Source: Minisyncoccota bacterium (GTDB lineage Bacteria > Patescibacteriota > Minisyncoccia > Phycocordibacterales > DATDSR01). From it: a stretch of 64,000 nucleotides of DNA. Numbering within the stretch: the first letter of the stretch is position 1; every line of letters starts with the position of its first letter. Location of the stretch: assembly GCA_036517655.1 (NCBI GenBank), contig DATDVE010000013.1, positions 28,364-92,363 on the forward strand. Reading direction: 5' to 3'. The notes under the pieces were generated by a model. The model was not told the origin of the DNA, did not search any database, and saw only the letters and a program-made list of their open reading frames with translations. Of the stretch, positions 444 through 19,375 are shown one piece after another. The position numbers and the translations under genes are program-made.

Positions 444-476
444 AACGCTCGTAAGGGTTCGGGGAGGGCAAAGAAA

Positions 477-863: not shown

Positions 864-877
864 GGCCGGGAGAATAG

Positions 878-930
878 GGGTCGCGTGATGGAGAGAATCT
901 TTCTCCGGAGCGCGACCCTCTTTATTTATT
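878..930. terminator. Bidirectional hairpin terminator between convergent genes
   Basis: GGGTCGCG...CGCGACCC stem followed by T-rich tract. Stop of the minus gene lies at 922-924. Confidence 0.5.
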
Positions 931-2259: not shown

Positions 2260-2288
2260 AATTTTGTCAAGCGGAGTAGTTTACGAAT

Positions 2289-3350
2289 ATGACAAACAAA
2301 CTAATTCTCACAGGTCTCCTCTCGGGCCTCATTTTAGTGCCTGGCTTAGTTAGCGCCCAGTATTACACTGGTATGTATCCTCAGTACCAGAGCCAGTACC
2401 AGACTTATCCGTACACTTACGGATACAATTACGGTCAGGTTTTGGGAGCTTCCTACTATCCTTATCAGCAATATCAACCTGGTTGCAACTTCACAGTTAA
2501 TCTTTCGCTTGGTTCTACACATCCACAAGTGGCTGATCTAAATAGGATGTTAGGTATAGGAGAGGGATCGTATTTTGGCGCGGCCACTTATAACGCAGTT
2601 GTGCGTTTCCAGAATCAATATGCAAGCGAAGTGCTCTATCCTGCAGGTCTCACGTCTGGGACAGGCTTCGTGGGTTCGTTCACGCGCAACAAATTAAATT
2701 CACTTTGCAACGGACAATCCAGTTTGCAAATGGGAATGAGCATGTACGGCGGCTATCCATATTACGGACAAGTTGCTGGTGCATACTACAATGCGTATCC
2801 GTATTACAACTACCCAACATATCCTACTTACCCCACGTATCCAACTTATGGCACACCTACTCTTAACTTCTACGCCTCAAACACGAATGTTAATTACAAC
2901 GACGTAGTGACATTAAACTGGAACGGCACAAATATTTCGTCATGCAACGCAAGCAGCGGTTGGAGCGGCAGCAAAAGCATAAGTGGCACGGAGTCGCGCA
3001 CTATTAGTTCGGGCACTAACTTTACTCTCACGTGTTATGGCACAAATGGCGAGCAAGTCACGCGCAACGTCTATGTGAGCACAAGCGGTACTAACACTGG
3101 CAATATAAGCATCAACTTCTATGCCAATCCGGCCAACGTTTACTCGGGGGGTAGTACTACACTCTATTGGACTACAACCGGTGCCAATAACTGCACGGCA
3201 TCTGGTATAAACTGGTCAGGTTCAAGGGGGACTTCTGGCAACGAAGTGGTTTACAATCTAACGTCTACTCGCACTTACACTCTCTCTTGTTCCAACTCTT
3301 CTGGTCAGAGTGCAACCCAAAGTGCCACTGTGGGAGTTCTATCCAATTAG
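2289..3350 (+). CDS. Secreted protein with Tyr/Gln/Pro-rich low-complexity segments, putative peptidoglycan-binding-like domain and Ig-like repeats
   Basis: Signal peptide. YPQYQSQYQTYPYTYGYNYG and YPTYPTYPTYPTYG tracts. CNFTVNLSLG...PAGLTSGTGFVGSF domain shared with ORF 42325-45807. Repeated TLNWNGTNISSCNASSGWSGSKS-like Ig-fold modules. Confidence 0.6.
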   Translation: MTNKLILTGLLSGLILVPGLVSAQYYTGMYPQYQSQYQTYPYTYGYNYGQVLGASYYPYQQYQPGCNFTVNLSLGSTHPQVADLNRMLGIGEGSYFGAATYNAVVRFQNQYASEVLYPAGLTSGTGFVGSFTRNKLNSLCNGQSSLQMGMSMYGGYPYYGQVAGAYYNAYPYYNYPTYPTYPTYPTYGTPTLNFYASNTNVNYNDVVTLNWNGTNISSCNASSGWSGSKSISGTESRTISSGTNFTLTCYGTNGEQVTRNVYVSTSGTNTGNISINFYANPANVYSGGSTTLYWTTTGANNCTASGINWSGSRGTSGNEVVYNLTSTRTYTLSCSNSSGQSATQSATVGVLSN

Positions 3351-4285
3351 TGACAAACAAGCGAAGGACGAAACTTAGAATCGCTGTTTTATCCGGCGGA
3401 CCCGGAAGTGAGAGGGAGGTAAGTCTAGATTCTGGAAGGAATGTAGTTAGAGCGCTGGAAACTGGAGAAAACAAGTCTAGGTATATAGTAATACCTCTTA
3501 AGTTTCGCGATCCTCGATTACTTATGTCCAGACTCCAGCGCATCCAGCCTCATGTTGTTTTTCCAGTGTTGCACGGCGAGTTTGGCGAAGATGGCAAAGT
3601 TCAGGCTCTTCTGGAAGTATTCGGCAAGCCATATATCGGCTCGAGAGTGCTTGCCTCGGCGCTTGCGATGGATAAAGTGATTTCATCCAAACTTTTGCAC
3701 GCCGAGGGCGTGCGCGTTCCTAAGGAAATCACCCCGCGAAGCCAAGTAAATTTATTTGGCGGAGTGGGGTCATGTATTGTGAAGCCAAGGAACGGAGGCT
3801 CGAGCGTGGGGGTCTCGATAGTAAGAAATAAAAAAGACTTACAAAAAGCTATTAAGTTAGCCGAAAGAGAGGGCGAACCACTGGTTCAGGAATATCTATC
3901 GGGCAGAGAGTTCACTTGCGGGGTGCTCGAATTTGCGAAGGGCAAACCCAGCGCCCTGCCTGTGACAGAGATTATCCCCAAGAGTAAGTTCTTCGACTAC
4001 AAAGCCAAGTACATGAAGGGCGGTAGCGAAGAGATTACGCCGGCCGGTATATCGAGAAAGTTAACGGAAGAAATTCAACAGAGAGCTTTGCTTGCTCATA
4101 AAGTTTTGGCTTGCCGACATATATCTCGATCAGATTTTATATATTCGCGAGGCAAGCTCTATTATCTCGAGACCAACACCATGCCCGGCATGACGAGCAC
4201 GTCACTCATCCCGCAAGCCGTAAGAGCAGCCAAAATGACGATGCCCGAATTCTGCGATCGCTTAGTCCAAGCTACTCTTCAGTAA
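3350..4285 (+). CDS. ddl: D-alanine--D-alanine ligase (ATP-grasp)
   Basis: IAVLSGGPGSEREVSLDSG N-terminus plus ATP-grasp motifs. Start is probably the GTG at 3350 immediately after the upstream stop; the ORF-track start at 3287 overlaps the previous gene. Confidence 0.8.
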   Translation: MTNKRRTKLRIAVLSGGPGSEREVSLDSGRNVVRALETGENKSRYIVIPLKFRDPRLLMSRLQRIQPHVVFPVLHGEFGEDGKVQALLEVFGKPYIGSRVLASALAMDKVISSKLLHAEGVRVPKEITPRSQVNLFGGVGSCIVKPRNGGSSVGVSIVRNKKDLQKAIKLAEREGEPLVQEYLSGREFTCGVLEFAKGKPSALPVTEIIPKSKFFDYKAKYMKGGSEEITPAGISRKLTEEIQQRALLAHKVLACRHISRSDFIYSRGKLYYLETNTMPGMTSTSLIPQAVRAAKMTMPEFCDRLVQATLQ

Positions 4286-4341
4286 CTCACCCTACCCTCT
4301 CTTATAGATAAGAGAGGGCGAGACAGAGTCCGGGTGAGTTA
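4283..4341. mobile_element. MITE-like palindromic element copy 1
   Basis: TIR TAACTCACCC (4283-4292) / GGGTGAGTTA (4332-4341). Internal 24-bp palindrome CCCTCTCTTATAGATAAGAGAGGG. Its first TAA is the ddl stop codon. Confidence 0.8.
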
Positions 4342-4356
4342 TGTTAAGATACTATA

Positions 4357-5343
4357 ATGAAATCCTTTGATTTTATCGCGGTTGGAGATATTGTGGCGGA
4401 TGCTTTTATACGCCTTTCTGTGGCTGAAGAGCATTTGAATAAGCATGCTCCGGAACTCTGCATGCCCTTTGCCACCAAGATTCCTTACGAATCTGTTGCG
4501 GAAATTTTGGCTGTGGGTAATTGCGCTAACGCGGCTGTGGCCGCCGCCCGCCTTGGCTTATCAAGTGCCCTCGTTTCTAATCAAGGCGACGACGAGATAG
4601 CCAAGAAGCAACGGGAAGTACTTGTGAGTGAGAAAGTGGGAGATGAGTTTGTGATTGATCACTCCGGAATGAAGAGTAATTATCACTACGTTTTGTGGTT
4701 CAAAGATGATCGCACTATCCTAGTCAAACACGAAGATTATCCGTATACGTTGCCGGATATAGGCGAGCCGAAGTGGCTATATATAACTTCTCTTGGTCCT
4801 AAATCTTTGGATTTTCATAAAATTCTTGAATCGTACATCGTGAATCATAATTCTATCCAGCTCGCTTTCCAGCCGGGCACGTTTCAGATCAAAATGAGCA
4901 AGGAGTTGATGGGGTTGTATAAACTTGCCAAAATTTTCTTCTGCAATATCGAAGAGGCCCAGTTAATCCTCAACACAAAAATTGAAGACCCAAAATTACT
5001 TATGCAAAAGTTGCACGAACTGGGGCCCGAGATAGTGTGTCTGACTGATGGACCCAATGGCGCATATGCCTTGGATGGGAAGACGGGCGAAGCTTGGACT
5101 ATAAGCACGTATCCAGATCCCAAGCCCCCCTTTGATCGCACGGGTGCGGGCGATGCGTTTGCCAGCACATTCACATGTGCAATTGCTCTAGGTAAATCTA
5201 TCCCCGAAGCCCTCGCCTGGGCGCCCATTAACTCAATGAATGTTGTGCAATATGTAGGAGCACGCGAAGGACTGCTGACACGAGAGAAACTTGAAGAGTA
5301 TCTGGCAAATGCCCCGAGTGCCTACAAGGCAGCTAAACTTTAA
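4357..5343 (+). CDS. PfkB-family carbohydrate/nucleoside kinase (ribokinase-like)
   Basis: C-terminal GAGDAFASTF anion-hole motif typical of PfkB kinases. 328 aa. Confidence 0.8.
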   Translation: MKSFDFIAVGDIVADAFIRLSVAEEHLNKHAPELCMPFATKIPYESVAEILAVGNCANAAVAAARLGLSSALVSNQGDDEIAKKQREVLVSEKVGDEFVIDHSGMKSNYHYVLWFKDDRTILVKHEDYPYTLPDIGEPKWLYITSLGPKSLDFHKILESYIVNHNSIQLAFQPGTFQIKMSKELMGLYKLAKIFFCNIEEAQLILNTKIEDPKLLMQKLHELGPEIVCLTDGPNGAYALDGKTGEAWTISTYPDPKPPFDRTGAGDAFASTFTCAIALGKSIPEALAWAPINSMNVVQYVGAREGLLTREKLEEYLANAPSAYKAAKL

Positions 5344-5360
5344 TTATCCACTTTGTAGAT

Positions 5361-5400
5361 CAAGTAAAATTAGTGAGCGATCGCTCACTAATTTTACTTG
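5361..5400. terminator. Perfect 40-bp palindrome (20+20) between convergent genes; bidirectional terminator or operator
   Basis: CAAGTAAAATTAGTGAGCGA|TCGCTCACTAATTTTACTTG centred on GCGATCGC. Confidence 0.5.
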
Positions 5401-5407
5401 ATTTATT

Positions 5408-5986
5408 TCACTTGAGATCGAACTCTTCTCGCAACCAGTGATCATTTTCTAGTTTGTCTACTTCTAAATAAAGAACTTCTCTTCCCAACTCGTATTTCCG
5501 TTTGATCAGAGTGATAACATCAGCGCAAGGGTATGGATGAACCCACGCACTTTTTTGTAACGACACAAAGCCGAGGGCAATTAAAGTTGAACGCAGCTCC
5601 TCACGTGTACTTTTTTTAAATTCCGGAATATCAAACATTACGACTCGCCAGTTTCCGTCCCAGTTCCAAGGTTTCTTAATAGAAAGAGTTTTTAACTGAT
5701 ATCCAGTTGCAAGTTTTTCCCCTTTGTCTGTCAGTTCGTATCCTGTGCGATTTCCTTTTTTCACCTTTTTCAACAGTCCTCGATCCACCAGATCTTGCGC
5801 GACACGGTGCATGTACCATTCTTTTCGCTTAGATTCATCTATTCCTAAAATTTGTAACGCGTTTGGAGCCATCACGGCCACAGCAAGGAAACCTACTACG
5901 CCAACAGAATATAGAATTGTTTGTGCAATTTTCCCGATTCTCTTATTGTTTCGATAATCCCTAAGTTCTTTCGAAGTAAACGCCAT
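5408..5986 (-). CDS. PaaX-like/Cas2-fold wHTH regulator with N-terminal TM helix
   Basis: WDGNWRVVMFDIPEFKKSTREELRSTLIALGFVSLQKSAWVHPYP resembles the PaaX C-terminal (Cas2-like) domain. TGYELTDKGEKL wHTH. Hydrophobic stretch near the N-terminus. Confidence 0.4.
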   Translation of the reverse strand: MAFTSKELRDYRNNKRIGKIAQTILYSVGVVGFLAVAVMAPNALQILGIDESKRKEWYMHRVAQDLVDRGLLKKVKKGNRTGYELTDKGEKLATGYQLKTLSIKKPWNWDGNWRVVMFDIPEFKKSTREELRSTLIALGFVSLQKSAWVHPYPCADVITLIKRKYELGREVLYLEVDKLENDHWLREEFDLK

Positions 5987-6000
5987 TATTACAGGTTATT

Positions 6001-6312
6001 TTGTATGGTAAAATTAGTATGCTATCGCTCTCTAATTTTACCATTGGCACTCTTAATTATCCAGATAGTATGGCGGAGGAGGTTCGGATAATGGATAACT
6101 TCGTGCAGCACCCAGACAATGAAGTGCAGCAGGCGATCACGAGACTCGCAGACGCACTCTGTTCGTGGGAGAGGAGTACAGGACTACAATCGGTGTTAAT
6201 TATCCGAGAACAAGGTGATCCAGGGTTCGTTTTTCGAGCAATGTCGGGCAAGCCAGGGATTCCCGATGACATAACGGATCAGCAGATGGTGGATACGATA
6301 CGCCGGGGATAG
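6001..6312 (+). CDS. Hypothetical small protein
   Basis: ORF only. Followed by hairpin GTACCCGGG...CCCGGGTAC (6328-6359). Confidence 0.3.
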   Translation: MYGKISMLSLSNFTIGTLNYPDSMAEEVRIMDNFVQHPDNEVQQAITRLADALCSWERSTGLQSVLIIREQGDPGFVFRAMSGKPGIPDDITDQQMVDTIRRG

Positions 6313-6378
6313 GTGGCCCGTCATGAGTACCCGGGTCTGTGGTAGCAGGCCCGGGTACTTACAATTTTATGATACTAT

Positions 6379-6873
6379 TTGATTCTAATGATTCTACGGG
6401 TAATCAAGAGAGTTTTTGGTGAGACGCGATATTTTTTTATTTCTCTTTTTGCTTTTCTTATTCTGATTGTACTGGCTGCTTGGCTGCCTAATCTTGCACT
6501 CGTCAAAGTTATTCCCTTGGGCTTGATCAGCGCTTTACCCAGCACCCTCGGATTAATTCAGTTTGCATATCTATTAATTGTGAGTATGTTATTTAGCATC
6601 AGCTTGAGCTTCAGCATTTACTATATTAAGCACTCTGGTTTGCTTGCCCGCCGAAGCCTTGGCGTAGGTGGGAGCGGTTTAGTCCTTGCCGTGCTCGGCT
6701 TAGGTTGTGCCTCTTGCGGTTCTCTAGTCCTTACCCCGGTACTGGGACTTGCCGCTGGCGGTTTCCTTGCCTTCTTGCCACTGCGTGGTTTCGAGATTGC
6801 CGGTTTGGGTCTAACCCTGCTTGCATATTCCTTTTACAACTTAGCCAGAAAGATAGATAATCCGTACACATAA
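6379..6873 (+). CDS. Integral membrane protein
   Basis: Multiple hydrophobic helices. Stop overlaps the start of the next ORF (TAAATG). Confidence 0.5.
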   Translation: MILMILRVIKRVFGETRYFFISLFAFLILIVLAAWLPNLALVKVIPLGLISALPSTLGLIQFAYLLIVSMLFSISLSFSIYYIKHSGLLARRSLGVGGSGLVLAVLGLGCASCGSLVLTPVLGLAAGGFLAFLPLRGFEIAGLGLTLLAYSFYNLARKIDNPYT

Positions 6874-7362
6874 ATGGATCAGGTAGAAAATGTAAAAAAT
6901 GAGGAGTTAATTAGGCAAATACAGAAGCCGGAAAGGAAAGTTGCAAGACCTAAGCGATTTAAATTCTTGGCAATTCTGATTGTTTTAATTCTCGCGTTAC
7001 TCGTTACAAATTACGCGTACCAATATTTTGGCTACTACACTATTTCAGAGCAAGCCATCCACTGGCATGCGCACTTAATTATTCGCGATAAGGGGAAGTA
7101 CGTGCCTATTCCGGCGTCTGTCGGGTTGCTTAGGGACACAGCTCATCCGGAGAACTTGCACACTCACAGCGATGACAATATTATCCACATGGAGATAGAA
7201 GGACCAGTACGGGCAAGGCAAGTGATGCTCGGTGCGTTCTTCGGAGTTTGGGGCGAAGATTTCGGCAACCCGGTAAGCCTATTGGTGAACGGCAGCCCGG
7301 TGAGTGCCGGCGAGGATTATGTCATGCACGATGGTGACGAGATCGAGCTTAACTACGAGTAA
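6874..7362 (+). CDS. Membrane-anchored His-rich hypothetical protein
   Basis: N-terminal TM. HWHAHL and HTHSDDNIIHME His clusters suggest possible metal binding. Translationally coupled to the upstream gene. Confidence 0.45.
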   Translation: MDQVENVKNEELIRQIQKPERKVARPKRFKFLAILIVLILALLVTNYAYQYFGYYTISEQAIHWHAHLIIRDKGKYVPIPASVGLLRDTAHPENLHTHSDDNIIHMEIEGPVRARQVMLGAFFGVWGEDFGNPVSLLVNGSPVSAGEDYVMHDGDEIELNYE

Positions 7363-7427
7363 ACTTGTAAGAATTTGATTGCCAAAGCGTCTCCTATCTT
7401 AACAATAGCAATAATTAAATAATCTGT

Positions 7428-8264
7428 ATGGACGACATTCAAAGAGATAGGTCCCGTTTAATGAAGTCAGTAACGGCTTTCGTATGGATACTCTGCGCGG
7501 TGGCTGTGGCCTCCTTCCTTGTTCTGCTCAACTACAACAAAGCCGTGGACTCTTACGATAAGAGTACTATTACAGTGCAGGGCACTGCGGAGCGATTCGT
7601 GACGCCGGATATTGCCACTATATCTTTCGAGGTAAGCGAGACAGCCAAGACTGTATCTGCCGCTCAAGACTTGGCTACACAGAAAATGAACAAAGTGGTT
7701 GCTTACCTTAAAGAAAGTAGCGTAGACGAGAAGGATATTCGCACCACGGGTTATCAAGTTTACCCGGAGTATGAATATTTCTACGAATTCGACGGCGTGC
7801 GTTGTTTGTCCAACTATTGTCCGCCACCGTACGTATACAAAAATGAGATCAAGAGTTATCGGGTAGCGCAATCTGTGCAGGTGAAGGTGCGCAAAATAGA
7901 TGATGCCGGCAAGATTCTATCTGGCATCGGTGGATTCCAGGTGAGCAATGTTTCGGGCCTCTCGTTCGAAGTTGAGGATATTGAGAATGTGCGCGAGGCA
8001 GTCAAGAATGAGGCTATCAAAGATGCCCGAGCCAAGGCCAAAGAACGTGCCAAGTCACTCGGTGTGAGCCTCGGAGATATAGTGTCAGTAAGTGACGACG
8101 GTTACTATCCGATCTATTACGGTAAGGCCGTAGCTATGGACAGTAGCCTTGCCATATCCGAAGGCAGGGGAGGTGGAGGCGACGCCATGCCGGTTCCGCC
8201 AGAAGTGCCAGCCGGAGAGAATCAAATAGTCTCTAACGTAACAATAGTCTTCGAAATCAAATAA
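7428..8264 (+). CDS. SIMPL-domain (DUF541) protein
   Basis: TITVQGTAERFVTPDIATISFEV start and overall pattern typical of the SIMPL/26-kDa periplasmic immunogenic protein family. N-terminal TM. Confidence 0.7.
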   Translation: MDDIQRDRSRLMKSVTAFVWILCAVAVASFLVLLNYNKAVDSYDKSTITVQGTAERFVTPDIATISFEVSETAKTVSAAQDLATQKMNKVVAYLKESSVDEKDIRTTGYQVYPEYEYFYEFDGVRCLSNYCPPPYVYKNEIKSYRVAQSVQVKVRKIDDAGKILSGIGGFQVSNVSGLSFEVEDIENVREAVKNEAIKDARAKAKERAKSLGVSLGDIVSVSDDGYYPIYYGKAVAMDSSLAISEGRGGGGDAMPVPPEVPAGENQIVSNVTIVFEIK

Positions 8265-8442
8265 CACTCAACATTGCGATTGACGCAACATCTCCGTACC
8301 CGCGGTCGGTCCACCACGTTGTTGACTTAGAGAGCGAATAATGTAACTTTGGATACAGAGTAGCTCACTCTCATTGGGGCGACCCGGTGAGAAAATCCAC
8401 CAGCGATGGCTTCCGAGCGATCGGAGGAAAAGGAGAAGCTAG

Positions 8443-8871
8443 ATGATCACTCTGGCGATGATGGTAGCGTTCGTAAAGGGTAGGGATATGCTCGAGGCGG
8501 CGCCTAAGTTGCTCGATCGTATCCTGCGGGGGTTGAACGCTGTTCGCAAGCAGTTGAAACCGGAGACAGCCGATCTTGTTTTTGACATGCATCCTCCGGG
8601 GTGTCATGCGGGGTTTCATTACAGCATAAGCCTTAACTCCGGACAGTTCGGTGGGTACCGACTCTTCAGGTGCCCCTGTGTCTATGAAGGCCAAAACATC
8701 TATCATCCCTGGGTGCGGTTCGATGCTCCGGAAGGTGAGGAAGAGCTTCTGCTCCTGTTCTCCTTCTTTCCCTACGCCTTCGAGCAGATCTCTGAGCACT
8801 GTGGGCCTGGGTTCGACAAGATCTTGGCTGAACGTAGGAGAGCGGTGCTTGACCTCGGTGAGTATTTCTAG
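8443..8871 (+). CDS. Hypothetical Cys/His-containing protein (GC-rich island II)
   Basis: GGAGGAAAAGGAG SD upstream of the ATG. HPPGCHAGFH and CPCVYEG motifs. About 60% GC. Confidence 0.45.
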   Translation: MITLAMMVAFVKGRDMLEAAPKLLDRILRGLNAVRKQLKPETADLVFDMHPPGCHAGFHYSISLNSGQFGGYRLFRCPCVYEGQNIYHPWVRFDAPEGEEELLLLFSFFPYAFEQISEHCGPGFDKILAERRRAVLDLGEYF

Positions 8872-8956
8872 TGTCTGGGCGGCCCTTCGTGGGGCCGCCT
8901 TCGCCATTTGGCAGTTCGACCGCTATGTGCTAGCTTTGGGCCAGAGGAGGATTGCC

Positions 8957-9400
8957 ATGTCGGAACCGAGAATCGTGGACTTCAGAAAGCCAGCCGAGAA
9001 GTACCGAGCAGTTGTGGTGGAATACGACTACGAGGTGGATACAGGAGACGAATGCAAGGGTGTGAGAATCGAGGGACGTACAGGTCGCGGCGTGCTTTTC
9101 GAAGGACCTTCTGGCGTCGGCCGAGTACTTTTTCTCCCGCGCAGGTTCTACGAGAAGGAGCAGGGCGAGTTCTATGCTCTCACTGGCAAGGGTCGCGGGA
9201 GTAGATGGCCTTCGGCTCCTGAACTCGAGTACCATTCGTCAGACGCGTACGATCGGTGTGCGGCTCCCGAAACCGCCTTGCGTGAGATTGAGAAGGTCGA
9301 AGGGGCAGTGCCGGTGGTTGTCGAATTCGTACTACAGATCCCGATCAATCGCCGCAGGCAACAGGAGATCATGAAGACCTGTCTTGGTGTGACGTCGTGA
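8957..9400 (+). CDS. Hypothetical protein (GC-rich island II)
   Basis: Internal ATG at 8957 preceded by GAGGAGG SD. The ORF-track 8651-9400 is an upstream over-extension. Confidence 0.45.
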   Translation: MSEPRIVDFRKPAEKYRAVVVEYDYEVDTGDECKGVRIEGRTGRGVLFEGPSGVGRVLFLPRRFYEKEQGEFYALTGKGRGSRWPSAPELEYHSSDAYDRCAAPETALREIEKVEGAVPVVVEFVLQIPINRRRQQEIMKTCLGVTS

Positions 9401-9503
9401 CAGGGGACATGCCGGGCCCGGGGAAACCTGGGCCTTGCAACTTTTTATAAGTCTGGTAGTATGAGGCTACCCCGGGCAGGGGTTTTTTGCTAAGATTACA
9501 ACA

Positions 9504-9686
9504 ATGGCTAAAGTAACAGAATTCATTAAGGAGACTCGGGCAGAGCTTAAGCATGTGGCTTGGCCCTCCCGCAAGCAGACGGTTCAGGTCACTGCGCTCG
9601 TTATCGCTGTGTCATTATTTGTGGCCCTATTCCTGACACTCTTCGACTGGCTCTTTAGTCTTGGTCTTAAGACTTTAATAAGCTAG
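9504..9686 (+). CDS. secE: Preprotein translocase subunit SecE
   Basis: 60 aa with a single C-terminal TM, immediately upstream of nusG, the conserved secE-nusG-rplK arrangement. Confidence 0.8.
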   Translation: MAKVTEFIKETRAELKHVAWPSRKQTVQVTALVIAVSLFVALFLTLFDWLFSLGLKTLIS

Positions 9687-9718
9687 TACCTATTACCTAA
9701 CATTTAGTACCTACTAAA

Positions 9719-10264
9719 GTGGCTAAGCAAGAACTAAAACAAGAACGCGGTTGGTACGCTATACATACTTATGCCGGCTACGAGAACACTGTGTTGAGAA
9801 ATCTCAAACAGCGCATTGATAGTTTGGGTATGCAAGGCAAAATTTTCGCCGCGATTGTGCCGGTTGAGAAAAAGATCAAGATTAAGGGCGGCAAGCGTGT
9901 GAACACAGAAGAGAAGATCTACCCTGGCTACGTGCTTGTAGATATGATCGTAGATGACGAGAGTTGGTACGTGGTGCGCAATACTCCCAGAGTAACCGGC
10001 TTCGTCGGTTCGGGCACCACGCCCGTGCCCCTATCTGAAGAAGAAATTAAAAAGATTTTCTCGCGCATGGGCGAGGATGTGGCTCGGCACAATATTGATC
10101 TTGAAGTTGGCGAGGAAGTGAAAATTGAAGACGGGCCCTTTAAAGATCTGGAAGGCAAAGTAAACGAAGTAGATGACGTGCGCGGCAAGGTGAAAGTGCT
10201 CGTAAATATGTTCGGTCGCGAGACACCAGTCGAACTAGACTTTTTACAGGTTAAGAAAATCTGA
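9719..10264 (+). CDS. nusG: Transcription termination/antitermination factor NusG
   Basis: GTG start. NGN domain ([11 protein letters not shown]) and C-terminal KOW motif (GKVNEVD...KVLV). Confidence 0.9.
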
Positions 10265-10686
10265 TGGCAAAAAAAATTACAAAGAAAGTGAAGGTGCAGG
10301 CTATGGGTGGTGCAGCTACTCCTGCTCCTCCGCTTGGGCCCACACTTGGTCAGACGGGTATCAATATCGGTGAGTTCATTAAGCGCTTCAACGATGCAAC
10401 TAAAGATATGCGTGGAGAAGTGGTGCCAGCCGAGATTAGTATCTATGAGGATCGCTCATTCGATTTTGTTCTCAAGACGTCTCCCGCCTCACAATTGATT
10501 CTCAAAGCGATTGGCAAGGACAAAGGTTCGGGTACACCCAATACTGCAAAGGTAGGCAAGATCAGTAAAGCGCAGATCAAAGAAATTGCCGAGAAGAAAA
10601 TGGCAGACTTAAATGCTAAAGACTTAGAAGGAGCAATGCGAATCATCGAAGGCTCTGCCAGGAGCATGGGAGTAGACGTCAAGTAA
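10264..10686 (+). CDS. rplK: 50S ribosomal protein L11
   Basis: [28 protein letters not shown] canonical L11 N-terminus. TGATG overlap with the nusG stop. Confidence 0.92.
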
Positions 10687-10710
10687 GACAAGAAAATAGA
10701 GTGAACGAAA

Positions 10711-10755
10711 AGGGGCCCGCTCGCGCGTGGCCCCGGACTCTCGTCTTTCTTGTTC
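10711..10755 (+). terminator. Hairpin after rplK
   Basis: GGGGCC...GGCCCC stem followed by a T-rich run. Confidence 0.4.
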
Positions 10756-10763
10756 AGTGAGCT

Positions 10764-11138
10764 TTAGTTAGCATTCAGGATGAACTGCCGCACGGTGCGC
10801 CTGAACTTGCGTACGAGCTCCGGGTGCATGCCCGGCGAAGTTCGAAGCGTGCCACCGTTCTCGCGTAATTGCTCGAGGAGCGCTGGCAGGTCCTTCTCCT
10901 CAAGCGGGCACATGCTCCTGACCTCGTCCTCCGCAAGCGGACGGCAGTCAATGCCGATGCCGCCTTTGATCGGGTACCAGAGGCGGACCGTGCCGTCGTT
11001 TCCGTCCATGGCCAGGCCCTCATGGACCTTCTTGTTCCCGTACGTCAGGTACGTTACGGCTCGCAGGTTCGTGCCTCGGAAAGCTTGCCATCTTCCGAAA
11101 GCGGCTTTTCCTCTTCTGCCGATTGCCTTTGTCCTCAT
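10764..11138 (-). CDS. Hypothetical protein (GC-rich island III)
   Basis: 124 aa. Shares an AT-rich divergent promoter region (11139-11191, TATAAT-like) with the dUTPase-like gene. Confidence 0.4.
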   Translation of the reverse strand: MRTKAIGRRGKAAFGRWQAFRGTNLRAVTYLTYGNKKVHEGLAMDGNDGTVRLWYPIKGGIGIDCRPLAEDEVRSMCPLEEKDLPALLEQLRENGGTLRTSPGMHPELVRKFRRTVRQFILNAN

Positions 11139-11191
11139 GCTCCACCCCCCGGCTTATTATACGATATAATTAAACAAGGAGGGACTGGCCA
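11139..11191. promoter_or_regulatory. AT-rich divergent promoter region inside GC-rich island III
   Basis: CGGCTTATTATACGATATAATTAAAC with a TATAAT -10 box. Strong AAGGAGG SD for the plus gene. Confidence 0.4.
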
Positions 11192-11845
11192 ATGCCTGAG
11201 TCCAAGCAGCTCTTTTTACGCGCGATTCCGGATATCAAGGACACCGCCGGACAAGTTCCCGCGAGTGCGGAGGAGATACCTGTCCTGGTCCTGCCCGGCG
11301 GTCGGCCGCCAAAGCGACAGAATGAGGACGATGTGGGCTACGATGCCTCAACTAGGGCCATCATCTGCCCCAGTCTCGCCTTCGACGACGTCAATCCCGC
11401 CATGCGCAAGACGCTCTTCGACTTCAAGGAGCCCGCCCACGATCATACGCACCGCGGCAAGATCAAGCTTATTCCTGGTCGCGGAAATCCGGACGAGTGG
11501 GTCTGGATGATGGAGCCGGGTGAGCACGTCTTCCTGGGTCTGGGGGTCGTGCTCGGACTCACCAGTCCGTGGCGCGCCCACACCGTGCCACGAGGCTCGA
11601 CGCCGAATCGTCACTTCCTCATGTTGCTCGACGCCACGGTGCCGATCGATTCCGGTTTCCGCGGCGAGCCAGTTGCGCATCTTTGGCACACGGGGAAGGA
11701 ATCCTTTCCCCTTCGCCACGGCAATCGGTTTGTCCAGTTCGAATTCTGGAAGGCCGAGTTGCCCACGCTCGTGCAACTGCCACCCGGCGAAGTTCTGCCG
11801 GTCGGTATCCGGGGCACAAATTGCAACGGTTCAACCAGGGAGTAG
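11192..11845 (+). CDS. dUTPase/dCTP-deaminase superfamily protein (GC-rich xenolog)
   Basis: Motifs DVGYDAS (~AGYDL), PRGSTP (~RSG) and IDSGFRGEPV (~IDSDYRGE) of the dUTPase fold. A canonical dut exists separately at 16039. Confidence 0.5.
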   Translation: MPESKQLFLRAIPDIKDTAGQVPASAEEIPVLVLPGGRPPKRQNEDDVGYDASTRAIICPSLAFDDVNPAMRKTLFDFKEPAHDHTHRGKIKLIPGRGNPDEWVWMMEPGEHVFLGLGVVLGLTSPWRAHTVPRGSTPNRHFLMLLDATVPIDSGFRGEPVAHLWHTGKESFPLRHGNRFVQFEFWKAELPTLVQLPPGEVLPVGIRGTNCNGSTRE

Positions 11846-12361
11846 TGACCTCGCGCGCTCACGTATCTCGAAGTGGAAGGGGGGATTGTCCGGTCCGGCG
11901 GGCGATCCCTCTTCTTTTTTTACTACTTCAAATTCGTTTTCGTATTCGGGGAAGTAGACATCACCTTCGGCGTTGCTGTCTACGATAGTGAGATACAATC
12001 TGTCCGTATATGGCAGTGCTTGTTTATAAATTTCTCCGCCGCCGATTATGAAAATCTCATCACTATTTTCTGCCCGAGCAATCTCAAGGGCCTGCTCTAA
12101 CGATTCGGCTACTAGGTATCCGAAATTTGAACTTTGCGTTTTGAACTTTGCGCTTTGAGTTAGCACTATATTCGTGCGGCCAGGCAACACTCTCCCTATT
12201 GATTCAAAGGTTTTGCGCCCCATGATTATGGGATGACCCATGGTGAGGCTCTTGAACCGTGGCAGGTCTCCAGGAATGTGCCAAATTAAGCTGCCAGCCT
12301 TGCCTATGGCTCTAGTTTTGGACGATAGGGCGGCGATAATCGATATTCTTGGCTTTGTCAT
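11831..12361 (-). CDS. folA: Dihydrofolate reductase
   Basis: ISIIAALSS...LPW-like...IMGRKTFESIGRVLPGRTNIVLT...IGGGEIY motifs. True start is M171 of the ORF-track frame (CAT at 12359-12361). The upstream extension overlaps the next gene. Confidence 0.8.
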   Translation of the reverse strand: MTKPRISIIAALSSKTRAIGKAGSLIWHIPGDLPRFKSLTMGHPIIMGRKTFESIGRVLPGRTNIVLTQSAKFKTQSSNFGYLVAESLEQALEIARAENSDEIFIIGGGEIYKQALPYTDRLYLTIVDSNAEGDVYFPEYENEFEVVKKEEGSPAGPDNPPFHFEIRERARSLLPG

Positions 12362-12391
12362 GCCCTTCCAGTATACTTCTACCCAAGACTT

Positions 12392-13018
12392 ATGGCCAAA
12401 GTAGCAAAAATAAGTAGCAAGAATGGCAAGATAAGTAATAGGGGGATTTTCGGCTCGGGCTCGAACTTCTCCGATCGCTCTTTCGCCGATTACAAGAAGC
12501 TCAAAGCCTGCATTGATCATTGCAAGGGTCTGGGGCTCAAAATTATTCTCACTCAAGGTTCTTGGGATATGGCCCATATTGGTCACGCGCGATACTTCGA
12601 AGAAGCCAAGAAGCACGGTGATCTCCTCGTCGTGGGTGTAGATAGCGACGATAAGATCAGGAAGCGCAAAGGTCCGGGCAGGCCTGTTGTGCCCCAGGAC
12701 GAGCGTCTCGAGATGCTCTCGCACTTGCGTCACGTAGATATCGTCGTGCTCAAGGAGGCACATTATCCCAAATGGCATCTCATCAAGACAATTAGGCCCG
12801 ATGTCCTCTGGACAGTTAGGGAGACTTATAACGACAAGCAGAGACGCGAGCTCAAGAAATATTGCGGGCAAGTGTTGATTAGCCCGCGCATGGCCACAAC
12901 TTCTACTTCGGCCAAGATAAGACTAATGCAGATTAACACTGCCCAGCACTTGAAGCAGACACTGACACCCAAAGTGATGAGTGTGATCGAGGCGGTGCTC
13001 TCGGGAGAGAAAGCTTAG
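12392..13018 (+). CDS. Cytidylyltransferase-like nucleotidyltransferase (HxGH family)
   Basis: TQGSWDMAHIGHARYF...LLVVGVDSD matches the RfaE-domain-II/TagD-like nucleotidyltransferase signature. Confidence 0.6.
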   Translation: MAKVAKISSKNGKISNRGIFGSGSNFSDRSFADYKKLKACIDHCKGLGLKIILTQGSWDMAHIGHARYFEEAKKHGDLLVVGVDSDDKIRKRKGPGRPVVPQDERLEMLSHLRHVDIVVLKEAHYPKWHLIKTIRPDVLWTVRETYNDKQRRELKKYCGQVLISPRMATTSTSAKIRLMQINTAQHLKQTLTPKVMSVIEAVLSGEKA

Positions 13019-13026
13019 AAAGATTA

Positions 13027-13857
13027 ATGAAACTTGTCGCCTATATTCCTGTCTTGCACAAAGGCTATCTTGATCTATTCTCCCGGCACAAAGATTGCCG
13101 CGAACTTGCCATAATCGGCGAAGAAATTTTAGCCGACTTTGATCACGTAATTCGCAAAGACATCCGTCGCATTCCATCTGAACAAATGAAGCAAGCAATT
13201 GAAGCACTAGAACTATTTGATAAAGTAGAAATTCTCGACAAAAAGTTTGCAACTTCACTTGGCGCCCAGGGCGCCAAGTTAGTGATGTCAGATGATGAGA
13301 TTACTCGCACGCTTGCCAGTAGTGAGCTTAAGAAATGCGAGATAGAGTGGGACAAGGCATTCTTGCGTTGGCATCGCGACAACACGCTCGAAGAGCAAGC
13401 TACTGATCCAGACGAAACTGTCTCTCTCAAAGAAGTAGATCGGGAGCTTATGGGTAAAGCGAGAGAGAAGGGAAGTGAGAGTCTCGATTGGTATCGGCAG
13501 GTGGGGGCTTTGCTTGTGCGTGATGGGGAAATTCTGCTTAGTGCCGTAAACACTCATATGCCAAGTCCCACACAGGCTTATCAAGTCGGTGATCCAAGGA
13601 GTGTGTATAAGCGCAATTTGAATATAGAAATTTCGAGCGCTATGCACTCGGAGGCGGCAATAATTTCTGAAGCAGCCAGGCGGGGGATCAAAACAGAAGG
13701 CTGCTCTGTCTACGTCACAGATTTCCCCTGCCCGCCATGTGCCAAAGTATTATCGCACTCCGGTATAAAAAAATTATACTACGCCGGAGGCTACGCGGTC
13801 TTAGATGGGGGAATAGTCTTGAAAGATGCGGGGATCAAACTAATCAGAGTTAAATAG
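13027..13857 (+). CDS. dCMP/cytidine deaminase with ~145-aa N-terminal extension (degenerate nucleotidyltransferase-like)
   Basis: C-terminal HSEAAIISEAARRG...PCPPCAKVL zinc-binding deaminase motif. N-terminus AYIPVLHKGYLDLF resembles an HxGH motif. Confidence 0.75.
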   Translation: MKLVAYIPVLHKGYLDLFSRHKDCRELAIIGEEILADFDHVIRKDIRRIPSEQMKQAIEALELFDKVEILDKKFATSLGAQGAKLVMSDDEITRTLASSELKKCEIEWDKAFLRWHRDNTLEEQATDPDETVSLKEVDRELMGKAREKGSESLDWYRQVGALLVRDGEILLSAVNTHMPSPTQAYQVGDPRSVYKRNLNIEISSAMHSEAAIISEAARRGIKTEGCSVYVTDFPCPPCAKVLSHSGIKKLYYAGGYAVLDGGIVLKDAGIKLIRVK

Positions 13858-13868
13858 TAGCTCGCGAT

Positions 13869-13904
13869 CGGAGAGCAAAACCCCGAAGGGTATTTGCTTC
13901 TCCG
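13869..13904. terminator. Strong bidirectional hairpin between dCMP deaminase and HIT gene
   Basis: CGGAGAGCAAA...TTTGCTTCTCCG, 11-bp stem with one mismatch. Confidence 0.5.
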
Positions 13905-13927
13905 ACCGCTCGCTTTATGTGTGAGAC

Positions 13928-14485
13928 CTAGCCTTCGGTGGCGACTGCGTTCGGTCGCGGCTTTTCCGAGAAGCCCTTGCCGTCCCAGTCGCGCGGCATC
14001 TCGGTGTTGAAGCGATCAGATAGGAAAGCTTCGAGATGTCCCTCGTCGCGAAGTCGCTCGTAGATCGCCGCGAAGCGCCCGGCCCGTGCCGCGCTCTCGG
14101 CGTTCTCTTCGGGTTCCTTGGCGAGCGTCATCTGCACCCGCCCCGTCCCATCTGGTTCCCAGAGGTTCCAGTGGAAGTGCTCGATCGAGCCGGCGTTGAA
14201 CATCGGGTCGCCGAAGCGCAGTCCCAGGCCACCGCCCTTCATGTCGTACTCGTCAAGGGCCCAGCAGAAGAAGTGGAGGAACTCCAACCACTCCTCGTTC
14301 ATGAAGTCGTTCGGCGTAGTGATGTGGTTCTTGGGCACGATGAGCAGGTGCTTCTTGGTGTGCTTGTGTGGCGGATTGCACCACAGGAGCCTGACGTGGT
14401 TGCCCTCGATGATGATCTTGGTCGGATCGACTTTGCAGAAGGGGCAAGCGCTCCCGCCCGCCTCCATGCTCGCCCGGGTCTTCAC
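13928..14485 (-). CDS. HIT-superfamily (GalT-like branch) nucleotide transferase/hydrolase, GC-rich xenolog
   Basis: CPFC zinc motif and HFHWN histidine triad. About 62% GC. Paralog of 14606-15079. Confidence 0.5.
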   Translation of the reverse strand: MKTRASMEAGGSACPFCKVDPTKIIIEGNHVRLLWCNPPHKHTKKHLLIVPKNHITTPNDFMNEEWLEFLHFFCWALDEYDMKGGGLGLRFGDPMFNAGSIEHFHWNLWEPDGTGRVQMTLAKEPEENAESAARAGRFAAIYERLRDEGHLEAFLSDRFNTEMPRDWDGKGFSEKPRPNAVATEG

Positions 14486-14605
14486 GTACTGCTCGAGCTG
14501 GCGGCAGCCTTTAAGGCGCTGCAGATCGAATGCTGTGAGTTCCCTCGTGACGCACCTCCCTGTCCCACTTTTGCGGGACTCTTTCTTGGGTTAAGCTAGC
14601 ACAAA

Positions 14606-15079
14606 TTAGGCAGAAGGCAAGTTTGTTTTGTAGGCAAGTTTTACTTTCAGTTTTTCGTTCTCTTTGCCAAGAGAGTCAAGACGAGGAACGCCCGAGATTA
14701 GTTGAGCATGGATATGTTTGACTGTTGAACCGGTGTATTCCATGTCGCCGAAGCGCATGAAGACCGAACCTCCCGCAATTGCAAATTCTCTCTCCGCCCA
14801 CTGCATGAGACTGATTAGTTCTTCGCCCGCCTTACTTGGCAACTCGCTTAATTTCTCGTAATGAGATTTTGCAATAGCAAGCAAGTGTATGCGCGTGCCT
14901 TCGTATGGCCACTGATTCTTGGTTAGGATCCAATAGTCGCTTTCTTTGAGCACTGGCTCTTTGTGATACTTAGTTAAATTTTCTAAGCAGAAGGGACAAT
15001 GTCCTTCGGCTACGATCGTCTCCATCACCCGACGTTGTTCGTCGAGGCGGGAATTATCAAGATTTACGAAATAGCTCAT
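14606..15079 (-). CDS. HIT-superfamily (GalT/Ap4A-phosphorylase branch) protein
   Basis: CPFC zinc motif and KHIHAQL (HxHxQ) triad. Backbone GC. Confidence 0.6.
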   Translation of the reverse strand: MSYFVNLDNSRLDEQRRVMETIVAEGHCPFCLENLTKYHKEPVLKESDYWILTKNQWPYEGTRIHLLAIAKSHYEKLSELPSKAGEELISLMQWAEREFAIAGGSVFMRFGDMEYTGSTVKHIHAQLISGVPRLDSLGKENEKLKVKLAYKTNLPSA

Positions 15080-15095
15080 GATCTAGATTGTCATA

Positions 15096-16013
15096 TTAAA
15101 TAGCCACGGGTATACCCTTTATCCCTGGGTGCGGATTATAGTCGCTTAACTCGAAATCATCTTTCCTGAATTCAAATAAATCTTTTTTGGCCGTATTAAT
15201 AGTCATGGTAGGCAGGGCTCTCGGTTCGCGAGCGAGCATTGTCTCCACGGCCGGCACTTGATTAACGAATATGTGCGCGTCAGATATCGTGTGCACATAT
15301 TCGTACGGCTCAAGATCAAGCACTTGAGCGAGGGCAAGTGTGAGCGCGCCGTATTGGATCATATTCGAGGGGACACCCACGGGTACGTCGCCAGATCTCT
15401 GGAACATGTGCAGGGTGAGTTTGCCATTCATGACACGCAAGTGGATCCAACCATGACAGGGTGCCACTACCACTTTCTGCACTTTGCCACCGCCTCTGTA
15501 TGTGTACTGTGGAATCCAGGGAGTGATGAGATGAGTTTTCAAATGAGGTAGTTCTCGTATTTGTTTTATTATCTCGGCAAACTGATTTACTCCCTTGCCA
15601 TCGCTTGTGGGAAAGTCATGAAAGGCGGCGCCGTATGAACCCGGGCCCAAGTCACCAGTCGCAAGGCCGCGCTTAGAACACTTGGCTTCAGTAACCCAAT
15701 CCTTCCACCAGAAGCAGCCAAATTTCTCTAATTCTTCTTGGGTGTGAGCGCCGTTGATAAAGCCGAAGATTTCGCCGATTGCTTGACGCCAGACAGTTAC
15801 TGGCAAATGTTCAGATTCTTTGGGCGCCATATTTCGCTCGGTGATCATGGGGAAGCCGTTTGAGAGTTTGAAGTGCATCTGCACTCCGATCTTGCTGATC
15901 GTGTCTACTTCCTGCTGGCTCTTATCGCGCTGCCCCTCGGCGAGAATTGTCTTGAGAACATTCCTGTACTGCTCATCCGGTGTGCGCTCTGTGAGAGGGT
16001 GGGGCTTATACAT
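15096..16013 (-). CDS. thyA: Thymidylate synthase family enzyme (ThyA-like, divergent)
   Basis: VAPCHG (catalytic Cys), QRSGDVPVGVPSNMIQYGAL (Asn retained, uracil specificity), C-terminal YNPHPGIKGIPVAI almost identical to the E. coli ThyA end. Start is probably M22 of the ORF-track frame, which avoids overlap with dut. Confidence 0.75.
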   Translation of the reverse strand: MYKPHPLTERTPDEQYRNVLKTILAEGQRDKSQQEVDTISKIGVQMHFKLSNGFPMITERNMAPKESEHLPVTVWRQAIGEIFGFINGAHTQEELEKFGCFWWKDWVTEAKCSKRGLATGDLGPGSYGAAFHDFPTSDGKGVNQFAEIIKQIRELPHLKTHLITPWIPQYTYRGGGKVQKVVVAPCHGWIHLRVMNGKLTLHMFQRSGDVPVGVPSNMIQYGALTLALAQVLDLEPYEYVHTISDAHIFVNQVPAVETMLAREPRALPTMTINTAKKDLFEFRKDDFELSDYNPHPGIKGIPVAI

Positions 16014-16038
16014 GTCTAGTATTGTATAATGTCCGGGC

Positions 16039-16461
16039 ATGGAGATAAAGGTGCGCAAATTATCACCCGAGGCCAAATTGCCGGCTTATAGTCACGCGGG
16101 TGACGCGGGCCTAGATCTCTTTGCCCTAGAGAACACAGAACTTGAACCGGGCGTACGGGCGCAAGTCAAAACTGGCATTGCTCTGGAGATTCCTGATGGC
16201 CACGTGGGTCTAATCTGGGACAAGAGCGGCTTGGCCCAGAAATTTGGACTCAAGACGCTCGGCGGTGTAGTGGACGCTACGTATAGAGGCGAAGTGTTGG
16301 TGGGAATTGCTAATATCAGCAAAGAGCGATATGTGGTAGAAGCGGGGCACAAAGTTGCCCAGATGTTGATCCAGAAAGTTGAACAAGTGACTGTAGTAGA
16401 AGTGAAAGAATTAACGCAAACGAATAGAGGCCAAAGCGGCTTCGGCAGCACCGGCAAATGA
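16039..16461 (+). CDS. dut: dUTP diphosphatase
   Basis: GDAGLDL, GVVDATYRGEV and RGQSGFGSTG canonical dUTPase motifs. Confidence 0.9.
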   Translation: MEIKVRKLSPEAKLPAYSHAGDAGLDLFALENTELEPGVRAQVKTGIALEIPDGHVGLIWDKSGLAQKFGLKTLGGVVDATYRGEVLVGIANISKERYVVEAGHKVAQMLIQKVEQVTVVEVKELTQTNRGQSGFGSTGK

Positions 16462-18188: not shown

Positions 18189-18205
18189 TAGAATATGAGG
18201 GCAAA

Positions 18206-18751: not shown

Positions 18752-18883
18752 CGCAAATTTGCTTTGAGGCATACTTGTAAGTAGCATCGGCGAGTTCCGT
18801 CAATAGTGGCGGACTTCGCAAGGTCTCATCTTTAACCTTCTTCCCGCGCGAGCAATCGTTGCGGCGGCCCGAAAGGAGCCAGC

Positions 18884-19303: not shown

Positions 19304-19326
19304 GGGCAGGCCGAAGGTTGAAGGTC

Positions 19327-19375
19327 GGGGGCGAGGTATGCACAGTTGTGCTCCTCGCCCCCTTCTCCGTTTGAT
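19327..19375 (+). terminator. Rho-independent-like terminator after lipoprotein gene
   Basis: 10-bp GC stem followed by a T-containing tract. A TATAAT for the next gene follows. Confidence 0.5.

Follow-up and report, generated by a model that had tools for sequence, protein, structure and literature searches.

GC-rich one- and two-gene islands between conserved genes of a groundwater Candidatus Paceibacterota chromosome

Genomic context of the islands

We analysed 64,000 nt of chromosome sequence (hereafter the window, meaning this whole stretch) from contig DATDVE010000013.1, part of a metagenome-assembled genome (MAG) of Candidatus Paceibacterota, an ultra-small groundwater bacterium of the Patescibacteria, or candidate phyla radiation (CPR). 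Proteins of the window are deposited at NCBI as HEY44932xx with locus tags VJB98_015xx, and identical proteins occur on up to 22 contigs in NCBI, JGI, ENA and Logan assemblies. A preliminary description of the sequence had noted five GC-rich islands and ascribed them to recent transfer from a high-GC donor or to chimeric assembly. The five islands are real chromosomal, protein-coding units of one or two genes, all within the first 20 kb. The islands are not equally old: 1, 2 and 5 are lineage-specific, 3 is clade-wide and 4 is an old syntenic gene. Recent import of the islands from a high-GC phylum is not supported, and the unusual point is that GC-richness is tied to gene families and not to recency.

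The genes and signals of the islands are listed below. GC3 is the GC fraction at third codon positions, z compares it with 61 backbone genes, and L011 is a syntenic sister locus.

477 to 863, plus strand: island 1 gene (isl1_128), a 128-aa ORFan; GC 0.605, GC3 0.73, z 4.2
8265 to 8442: spacer to the left of island 2, between the stop of SIMPL and the start of isl2_142; GC 0.52, with a Shine-Dalgarno-like AAGGAG close to the ATG at 8443
8443 to 8871, plus strand: isl2_142, 142 aa, no known function; GC 0.541, GC3 0.65, z 2.8
8877 to 8900, plus strand: GC-rich hairpin GGGCGGCCC...GGGGCCGCC between isl2_142 and isl2_147, paired in the predicted fold
8957 to 9400, plus strand: isl2_147, 147 aa, no known function; GC 0.565, GC3 0.61, z 2.2; GGAGG 7 nt upstream
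9410 to 9445, plus strand: GC-rich hairpin and T-run after isl2_147, fold predicted; right edge of the insertion
9434 to 9490, plus strand: backbone element upstream of secE, with promoter-like TTGCAA...TAGTAT, hairpin ACCCCGGGCAGGGG and T-run; conserved in L011
10764 to 11138, minus strand: island 3 gene 1 (isl3_124), 124 aa, no known function; GC 0.60, GC3 0.74
11192 to 11845, plus strand: island 3 gene 2 (isl3_217), 217-aa divergent dUTPase-like paralog; GC 0.613, GC3 0.73 (z 4.3-4.5 for the two island 3 genes)
11878 to 11913: strong hairpin and T-run after isl3_217
13928 to 14545, minus strand: island 4 gene (HIT'), HIT-superfamily paralog with CPFC motif and HFHWNLW; GC 0.62, GC3 0.83-0.85, z 6.1
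18884 to 19303, plus strand: island 5 gene (isl5_139), 139-aa putative lipoprotein; GC 0.683, GC3 0.89, z 7.0; AAAGGAG upstream
19294 to 19309 and 19327 to 19361: hairpins of island 5

In Pfam and precomputed annotation, the backbone of the first 22 kb opens with an AAA_18 kinase gene that is cut at the window start and is followed by island 1. Large secreted proteins, Ddl, PfkB, PaaX-like genes and SIMPL lie ahead of island 2, secE-nusG-rplK ahead of island 3, and folA, a cytidylyltransferase-like gene and dCMP deaminase ahead of island 4. HIT, thyA, dut, argS and a gene without known function then lead to island 5, after which come a PA14 surface protein and ileS.

Base composition and coding potential

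The sequence was scanned in 300-nt segments against a GC threshold of 0.57, which a segment of that length reaches with a binomial probability of 0.002. Of all excursions in the 64 kb, the five that are longest and strongest lie at 415-1044, 8624-9494, 10621-11960, 13781-14638 and 18693-19470, and thus coincide with the five islands as first described. The background of 45% given for them is too low, since the window measures 48.3% GC, and the range of 58-67% GC per island is too high for the flagged region, 8290-9420, which has only 54-58%. Backbone genes (n=61) have a GC of 0.468±0.033 and a GC3 of 0.493±0.056 with a maximum of 0.62, against 0.54-0.68 and 0.61-0.89 in the seven island genes (z 2.2-7.0).

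The excess lies mainly at third codon positions and in one frame per gene, where GC3 is far above GC at second positions and the three-base period is strong; because it is confined to one frame, it identifies the coding strand of the island genes. Coding periodicity is present in all seven, in agreement with the earlier view of cassettes of one or two genes. For every amino acid, island genes favour codons that end in G or C (AAG accounts for 88% of lysine codons, against 47% in the backbone), and their proteins are rich in Arg, Pro, Gly, His and Cys and poor in Lys, Ile, Asn and Tyr. Spacers next to island genes are GC-rich as well (0.49-0.64, against 0.22-0.48 for backbone spacers; p = 1e-4), so that each island forms a regional unit together with its regulatory flanks. 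Pooled, the islands also differ from the backbone in their GC-normalised dinucleotide signature, with a delta* of 89 against a backbone null of 40±13.5 (p about 0.003). The compositional mosaicism first reported is real and extends to codon use. Both GC3 and the balance of C and G at third positions (C3/G3) vary between islands, which makes one single donor or source unlikely.

Shine-Dalgarno-like sequences precede six of the seven island genes and can be seen in each unit, as first noted. A GC-stem hairpin was likewise found by direct reading 3' of every cassette, as had been claimed for terminators, but a consensus terminator scan of the window returned 24 sites against 19.3±5 in shuffles, which is no enrichment.

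Assembly continuity and RNA genes

Ten loci from ENA, JGI and Logan assemblies of different samples (L001-L010) are 99.9-100% identical to the window over 1.3-18.9 kb and jointly cover every border of islands 1-4, while island 5 with both flanks was found in nine contigs from at least five samples. Chimeric assembly, the second explanation offered earlier, is refuted by these at least ten independent assemblies, at least 99.9% identical at the borders of islands 1-4, and by the recurrence of island 5. The sampled population is clonal, with 0-4 single-nucleotide polymorphisms (SNPs) in 15-19 kb, and SNP density is therefore uninformative.

Neither a tRNA gene (ARAGORN) nor an Rfam family was found in window positions 1-64000 at the gathering threshold; Rfam also gave no match in positions 1-20000 at E values up to 0.1 or in four relative loci. 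The region of island 5 is more stable than dinucleotide shuffles (folding z = -5.5). Against synonymous-codon shuffles, by contrast, the island coding sequences gave z values of -1.1 to +0.7, like controls and with no extra structure; the folding signal of island 5 vanishes there and is thus due to GC3 periodicity and the flanking terminator hairpins. A reading of the islands as structured RNAs was rejected on these grounds, namely no Rfam or tRNA match, strong period-3 GC and no excess structure over synonymous-codon shuffles. Antisense gene calls recur in GC-rich islands, at HIT', at island 5 and in the islands of relatives. For annotation, GC-rich islets in the CPR MAGs studied here are real genes and not contamination, and antisense calls are frequent.

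Island 2

Island 2 is a lineage-specific insertion of ~1.17 kb (about 8270-9445) in the intergenic region that separates a SIMPL-family gene from the secE-nusG-rplK operon. Of the five islands it is the weakest, with genes of 54-57% GC, a region of 54-58% and a peak window of 0.60. The insertion begins right after the SIMPL stop (8264), and from about 9454 onward the sequence is again similar to L011. There, SIMPL and secE are only 180 bp apart, with no trace of either island 2 gene between them; compared with this syntenic sister lineage, island 2 is a genuine insertion. Each of its genes has its own ribosome-binding site and a GC-rich hairpin 3', and the spacer between them (8872-8956) has a GC of 0.64.

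Wide protein searches (5.8 billion proteins; 1.84 billion representatives) took in isl2_142, isl2_147, isl3_217 and HIT'. The exact isl2_142 protein is present on 14-22 contigs, and only four remote homologs with 29-33% identity were found (HMMER, 1.84 billion representatives). One of them, P0035 in L041, lies between gyrB and thrS among Patescibacteria-type neighbours and has a GC3 of 0.66 against about 0.45 for those neighbours. Alignment with the remote homologs shows conserved positions H50-P51, H59-Y60, C77-x-C79 and H88-x-W90, and the invariant His, Cys and Trp could form a candidate metal-binding site. The sole homolog of isl2_147, P0029 (57% identity), is encoded in L018 at 14607-15023 on the minus strand between thyA and argS, with a GC of 0.566 against 0.47 for L018 as host. 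Identity between isl2_147 and P0029 at four-fold degenerate sites is 0.25, against a random expectation of 0.26. Since the family members occupy different slots in different genomes, isl2_142 and isl2_147 are independent modules of tiny families. NCBI annotation gives isl2_147 a longer form of 180 aa. AlphaFold2 (AF2) models of both proteins are of low confidence (pLDDT 53 for isl2_142, 45 for isl2_147). An AAA+ ATPase assignment for isl2_147, from a weak P-loop-like resemblance to solved structures (E 0.02-0.1), was judged spurious for a protein of 147 aa that is predicted to be beta-rich.

The L011 spacer at 9643-9745 contains a 20-bp perfect inverted repeat (GCAAACACATTGCAAGACCC / GGGTCTTGCAATGTGTTTGC) that encloses a 65-nt loop, with its right arm overlapping the promoter-like -35 element of secE. 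By comparison with this repeat, island 2 appears to lie between remnants of both arms.

Variable slots in related genomes

Backbone proteins of L011, L012 and L013 are 50-90% identical to those of the window. Relatives with 89-93% identical NusG keep the backbone and differ in slot content: the SIMPL-secE, rplK-folA and post-argS slots hold different small genes in L011, L016/17, L018/19 and L020/21, and the contents in L016-L021 include DUF2283, PDDEXK_3, AbiEii and one GC-rich non-coding stretch. Because slot contents differ among syntenic relatives, these slots are permissive, variable positions. At the island loci themselves, L011 lacks island 2, and orthologs of islands 3 and 4 occur in L011, L036 and L022. 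Relatives compared with one another (L016 with L017, among other pairs) showed no case in which a GC-rich cassette had been cleanly gained or lost.

Relatives have GC-rich (0.60-0.64) ORFan islands of their own, at 5269-5970 in L011/L012, 19226-19747 in L011, and 3593-4225 and 16965-17642 in L016. Several of these are deposited on the antisense strand, which is betrayed by a GC of about 0.8 at first codon positions. The SIMPL-secE slot of L016 (9080-9720) holds ~600 nt of GC 0.55-0.57 with no called gene, preceded by TTGACA-17-TATGAT and a hairpin. It gave no Rfam match even at E values up to 1, and it may be an undescribed non-coding RNA in the slot that island 2 occupies in the window.

Island 4

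HIT' stands in tandem with a backbone HIT gene (14606-15079), with a hairpin at about 13860-13913. Its minus-strand orientation is backed by NCBI annotation and by homologs; JGI, ENA and Logan calls took an antisense 187-aa open reading frame (ORF) at 14036-14599 on the plus strand. HIT' and the adjacent HIT protein are 24-28% identical and have CPFC and HxHx(Q/N) motifs in common. The assignment as a HIT protein, made earlier, holds for the joint profile of the two, which matches the solved HIT proteins 3oj7, 3ksv and 5uvm (E about 5e-6). HIT' alone is sub-threshold against Pfam HIT (13.5 bits, cut-off 21.5) and lacks the full triad HxHxHxx, having HFHWNLW with Asn as the third His, where its neighbour has HIHAQLI. 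An HxHxQ variant of the histidine triad occurs in the GalT/Ap4A-phosphorylase branch.

The cluster thyA-HIT-HIT'-dCMP deaminase-cytidylyltransferase-folA-rplK-nusG recurs in the distant Patescibacteria L030-L032 and L035 and is rearranged in L033 and L034. Identity of HIT' in distant Patescibacteria (33-40%) is comparable to that of dCMP deaminase (39-43%) and HIT (44-47%). L036 comes from the same aquifer; its HIT' shows 68% identity, compared with 54-84% for the genes on either side, and has a GC of 0.618 and a GC3 of 0.74 between flanks of 0.46-0.50 GC. In L011, HIT' is 35% identical, with a GC of 0.54, at the same position. Four-fold sites of HIT' are near saturation (identity 0.39-0.48 against 0.35 expected), and between the window and L036 their excess over compositional expectation is 0.13, against 0.04-0.14 for the flanks. 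HIT' has thus diverged for about as long as its neighbours, and the GC excess has not been lost: the window and L036 copies both keep a GC of 0.72-0.82 at four-fold sites (GC4). HIT' is GC-richer than its host in all eleven loci compared (the window, L036, L022, L011, L030-L035 and L039; sign test p = 5e-4), in hosts of 38-50% GC, and in most of them it ranks first or nearly first among the GC3 outliers. Over the divergence time of HIT', an old foreign signature should have faded, and something therefore maintains its GC.

Homologs conserve the N-terminal 20 residues of HIT' (LTAFDLQRLKGCRQLEQY; 14486-14592, minus strand), but in the window the first ATG, GTG or TTG comes only after them, and a GGGAGGTG motif is found still further 5'. 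HIT' may use a non-canonical start codon or have a truncated N-terminus. In L036, a 267-aa transposase-like ORF (4095-4898, minus strand) lies between the HIT gene and HIT', a placement that marks the HIT/HIT' spacer as a putative active insertion point.

Islands 1, 3 and 5

The preliminary description of island 1 as a kinase-like gene with a protein without known function applies in its second part, the 128-aa ORF being GC-rich; the kinase-like gene (42-443, truncated at the window start) has about backbone GC, 0.51. Upstream of isl1_128 lie the best promoter-like site of the scan (406-434) and GGGGAGGG, and a hairpin lies downstream at about 877-918. The 128-aa ORF has no family match in Pfam, PHROGs, NCBIfam or PADLOC, and direct comparison with a GC-rich ORF in L012 revealed no homology.

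In island 3, isl3_124 is transcribed divergently from isl3_217. The latter resides in the same genome as a canonical dut gene (16051-16461), and in alignment with canonical Dut it retains IDSGFRGE and RGTNCNGST, which correspond to the dUTPase motifs D-x-x-[FY]-R-G-E and R-G-x-x-G-x-G-S-T. The dUTPase-like label thus has support in retained motifs, but the score against TIGR00576 is 34 bits (E 2e-8), far below the cut-off of 102.6; PHROG 135 is also sub-threshold, and there was no Pfam match at E values up to 0.01. Unlike canonical dUTPases, isl3_217 has N-terminal and internal extensions and falls below curated cut-offs. A search of 5.8 billion proteins yielded only three relatives of it. Its L011 ortholog is 50% identical (GC 0.554), and P0028 is 35% identical (GC 0.49). 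The positional ortholog of isl3_124 in L011 is 33% identical, with a GC of 0.50. The L011 ortholog and a more distant L023 copy of isl3_217 are near host GC, and it follows that the lineage of the window either raised the GC of this 1.2-kb segment in place or swapped in a divergent allele from a GC-richer relative.

The N-terminus of isl5_139 reads MQITRSRFLAALSAAALTFVIAC followed by SSGGG, with a putative signal peptide ending in ...LTFVIAC, where the Cys would belong to a lipobox. No phage, plasmid or viral relative of isl5_139 was found in mobile-element collections. The island 5 slot of L011 holds a GC-rich lipoprotein gene, and direct comparison of its product with isl5_139 shows no homology.

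Origin of the islands

The islands may well be exchangeable Patescibacteria cassettes, or products of allele replacement from a GC-richer pool, a reading in which our confidence and our doubt are about equal. They would belong to a Patescibacteria-internal pool of small self-contained genes, to be exchanged or replaced allele for allele at permissive intergenic slots, and the base composition of these cassettes would be held above that of recipient chromosomes over long periods. The lasting GC could come from a GC-rich reservoir, such as an unsampled mobile element, or from a GC-biased process in place. The families of island 2 suit such a pool in that their other members sit in other slots, each GC-richer than its host. 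Across the four widely searched families, too, every relative whose flanking context is usable exceeds its host in GC, often at a different slot.

Several observations weigh against this reading. HIT' looks like an old syntenic gene, seemingly vertically inherited, to judge from a divergence that tracks its neighbours, and if it is vertical yet GC-rich, a pure exchange model would need a constant GC-rich source to explain it. None of the island genes was found on a GC-rich contig, phage or plasmid, and hence no donor or vector came to light, nor is there an integrase, transposase, tRNA or flanking repeat at the islands. The proteins of island 2 have no match in Pfam, PHROG, NCBIfam or PADLOC, and no defence-system, phage or structural assignment emerged for them. 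Taken singly, the islands, each of them short, have dinucleotide signatures with p values of 0.08-0.51, none significant. Viral-contig, phage and plasmid collections yielded nothing beyond generic dUTPases; a repeat search found no att-like or insertion sequence-like ends and no repeat common to island ends; and Pfam, PHROGs, NCBIfam and PADLOC returned only sub-threshold dUTPase matches (isl3_217) for the island proteins.

It is possible, though clearly less probable than such a pool, that GC is being raised in place by some local process, of which GC-biased gene conversion at recombination hot spots would be one example. With the same reserve we suggest how it might act: the slots would recombine often, repair would favour G and C, and GC3 would settle at a higher equilibrium whatever the origin of the gene. 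HIT' is the best test case of such a process; it keeps its syntenic position, is GC-richer than its host in every locus compared, and retains its GC4 despite near-saturated four-fold sites. The concentration of the excess at third positions with extension into spacers, the coincidence of islands with variable slots, and the faster evolution of island genes (33-50% identity, against 60-84% for neighbours) point the same way. However, a GC3 shift of 0.2-0.4 is reportedly far above bacterial effects on record, the clonal population offers no measurable recombination signal, other genes of variable regions have backbone GC (for example 6388-7362 and 18206-18751), and the L011 orthologs of islands 3 and 4 are far less GC-rich in the same slots.

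We put forward only tentatively, and as rather doubtful, the broader proposal that in some Patescibacteria families GC3 has long been raised by 0.1-0.4, as a property of the locus or of the family, and has stayed so through saturating divergence and vertical inheritance, with HIT' as the clearest case. If true, it would imply an unrecognised in-place GC-raising force in reduced genomes, for example local biased gene conversion or selection on the composition of DNA or RNA; an excess maintained in place would mean that base composition in ultra-small bacteria is under a strong local force.

We consider unlikely the origin first proposed, recent horizontal transfer from a high-GC donor that does not belong to the Patescibacteria, for instance a host bacterium. 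GC, codon and amino-acid use do resemble a high-GC genome, the pooled islands have an atypical dinucleotide signature, the sister lineage lacks island 2, and islands 1 and 5 are ORFans. Against this, the searched families have a handful of relatives at 29-70% identity, and all of those with usable flanking context lie among Patescibacteria-type genes; no other lineage, and no high-GC donor lineage, was among the matches for isl2_142, isl2_147, isl3_217 and HIT' in the wide protein searches. The nearest homologs are saturated at synonymous sites, and the islands differ from one another in GC3 and C3/G3 balance. For islands 3 and 4 such a transfer is contradicted: HIT' is anciently syntenic and near saturation, and a check for the same genes at backbone GC found the positional orthologs of island 3 in L011 at 0.50-0.55 GC, which argues against recent transfer.

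Selection for G- or C-ending codons, whether for codon adaptation, for mRNA stability or structure, or as an escape from AT-targeting nucleases or silencers, seems equally improbable. GC-richness as a family trait across hosts of 38-50% GC would suit it, as would the folding of the island 5 region beyond dinucleotide shuffles. Yet the coding sequences hold no structure beyond synonymous-codon shuffles, non-coding flanks are GC-rich as well, rplK, nusG and secE have backbone GC3, and HIT' is sharply unlike the adjacent, co-directional HIT gene. Finally, an artefact is very hard to credit, whether the assembly were chimeric or mis-binned or GC-rich structured RNA genes had been taken for ORFs. 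ORFs do overlap on both strands of the islands, and gene callers disagree on strand there, but the junctions are identical in at least ten assemblies from several samples and assemblers, strong period-3 GC is confined to a single frame, the protein families show conservation, and no Rfam or tRNA match emerged even at E <= 0.1.

Compositional outliers are usually read as the outcome of recent horizontal gene transfer. Here HIT' is old and syntenic, and two ORFan families are GC-rich wherever they are found; because the excess recurs across lineages of an old gene and of these families, GC-based island calling would mislead in these genomes. Through the cassettes, the thymidylate and nucleotide-salvage cluster gains a second protein of HIT-like and a second of dUTPase-like type; this cluster is of central metabolic importance to these auxotrophic symbionts.

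Comparison with known systems

In groundwater Patescibacteria, 83% of detected transfers were intra-phylum and most were not recent (mSystems 2025, PMC12455944), and the island data fit such frequent, mostly intra-phylum and mostly old exchange. The genomic islands of that study resemble ours as small foreign-looking segments in streamlined CPR genomes, and the relatives of the window's islands are likewise Patescibacteria-type and old. The units described here differ in their size of 0.4-1.2 kb, with one or two genes and no mobility genes, and in having been found by a GC3 excess that persists in homologs, with HIT' syntenic and seemingly vertical.

Bacteria have been proposed to undergo GC-biased gene conversion (Lassalle et al. 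2015, PMC4450053). The islands are similar in that their excess lies at synonymous sites and in regions expected to recombine. They are dissimilar in the size of the effect, a rise in GC3 of 0.1-0.4 that is much larger than values said to have been reported.

Integron cassettes are also small units of one or two genes, mostly of no known function, with an imperfect inverted repeat at the end. The islands, unlike them, are dispersed between core genes, each with its own promoter-like site. An integron cassette reading was rejected, there being no integrase and no attC-like repeat common to island ends.

Work on lambdoid phages from the Hendrix laboratory is said to describe morons as autonomous promoter-gene-terminator units of atypical composition between conserved genes. 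The islands are comparable, being small and self-contained, with a promoter-like site, a Shine-Dalgarno sequence and a hairpin, of atypical GC, and between conserved neighbours. Unlike morons, they lie outside any prophage, with no phage genes nearby and no viral relatives found. With respect to known protein families, HIT' and isl3_217 are related to the HIT and dUTPase families but below curated cut-offs, and HIT' has HxHxN.

Other features of the window

ThyA and NusG were compared between the window (12392-16040) and L016, L018, L020, L030, L031 and L035. ThyA is 67-73% identical to that of distant genomes (NusG 70-73%) and only 30-43% identical to that of the closest NusG relatives (91-93%). 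This conflict with the translation genes suggests a replacement, or differing ThyA types in the clade.

The rplK gene (10264-10686) has no rplA downstream, and rplJ-rplL lie 40 kb away (50033-50931). An L1 gene adjoining rplK was seen in none of the relative loci. Brown and colleagues reportedly noted, in 2015, Parcubacteria lineages that lack L1, and rplK without rplA is consistent with that.

The PaaX-like regulator gene at 5408-5986 (minus strand) is flanked by two copies, at 5356-5405 and 6008-6041 and 88% identical, of a 34-nt palindromic repeat, GTAAAATTAGTGAGCGATCGCTCACTAATTTTAC, the first of them inside a 50-nt palindrome with a perfect stem. These palindromes resemble operator sites or bidirectional terminators.

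Very large secreted or surface proteins with repeated domains are encoded at 19399-22095 (PA14), 42325-45807 and 51635-55363. An isoleucyl-tRNA-synthetase-like class I enzyme of 1160 aa (22123-25605, plus strand) contains a His_Phos_1 domain at residues 519-684 (E 2e-33) that interrupts the catalytic tRNA-synt_1 domain, and precomputed Pfam lists give the same architecture in L018 and L020.

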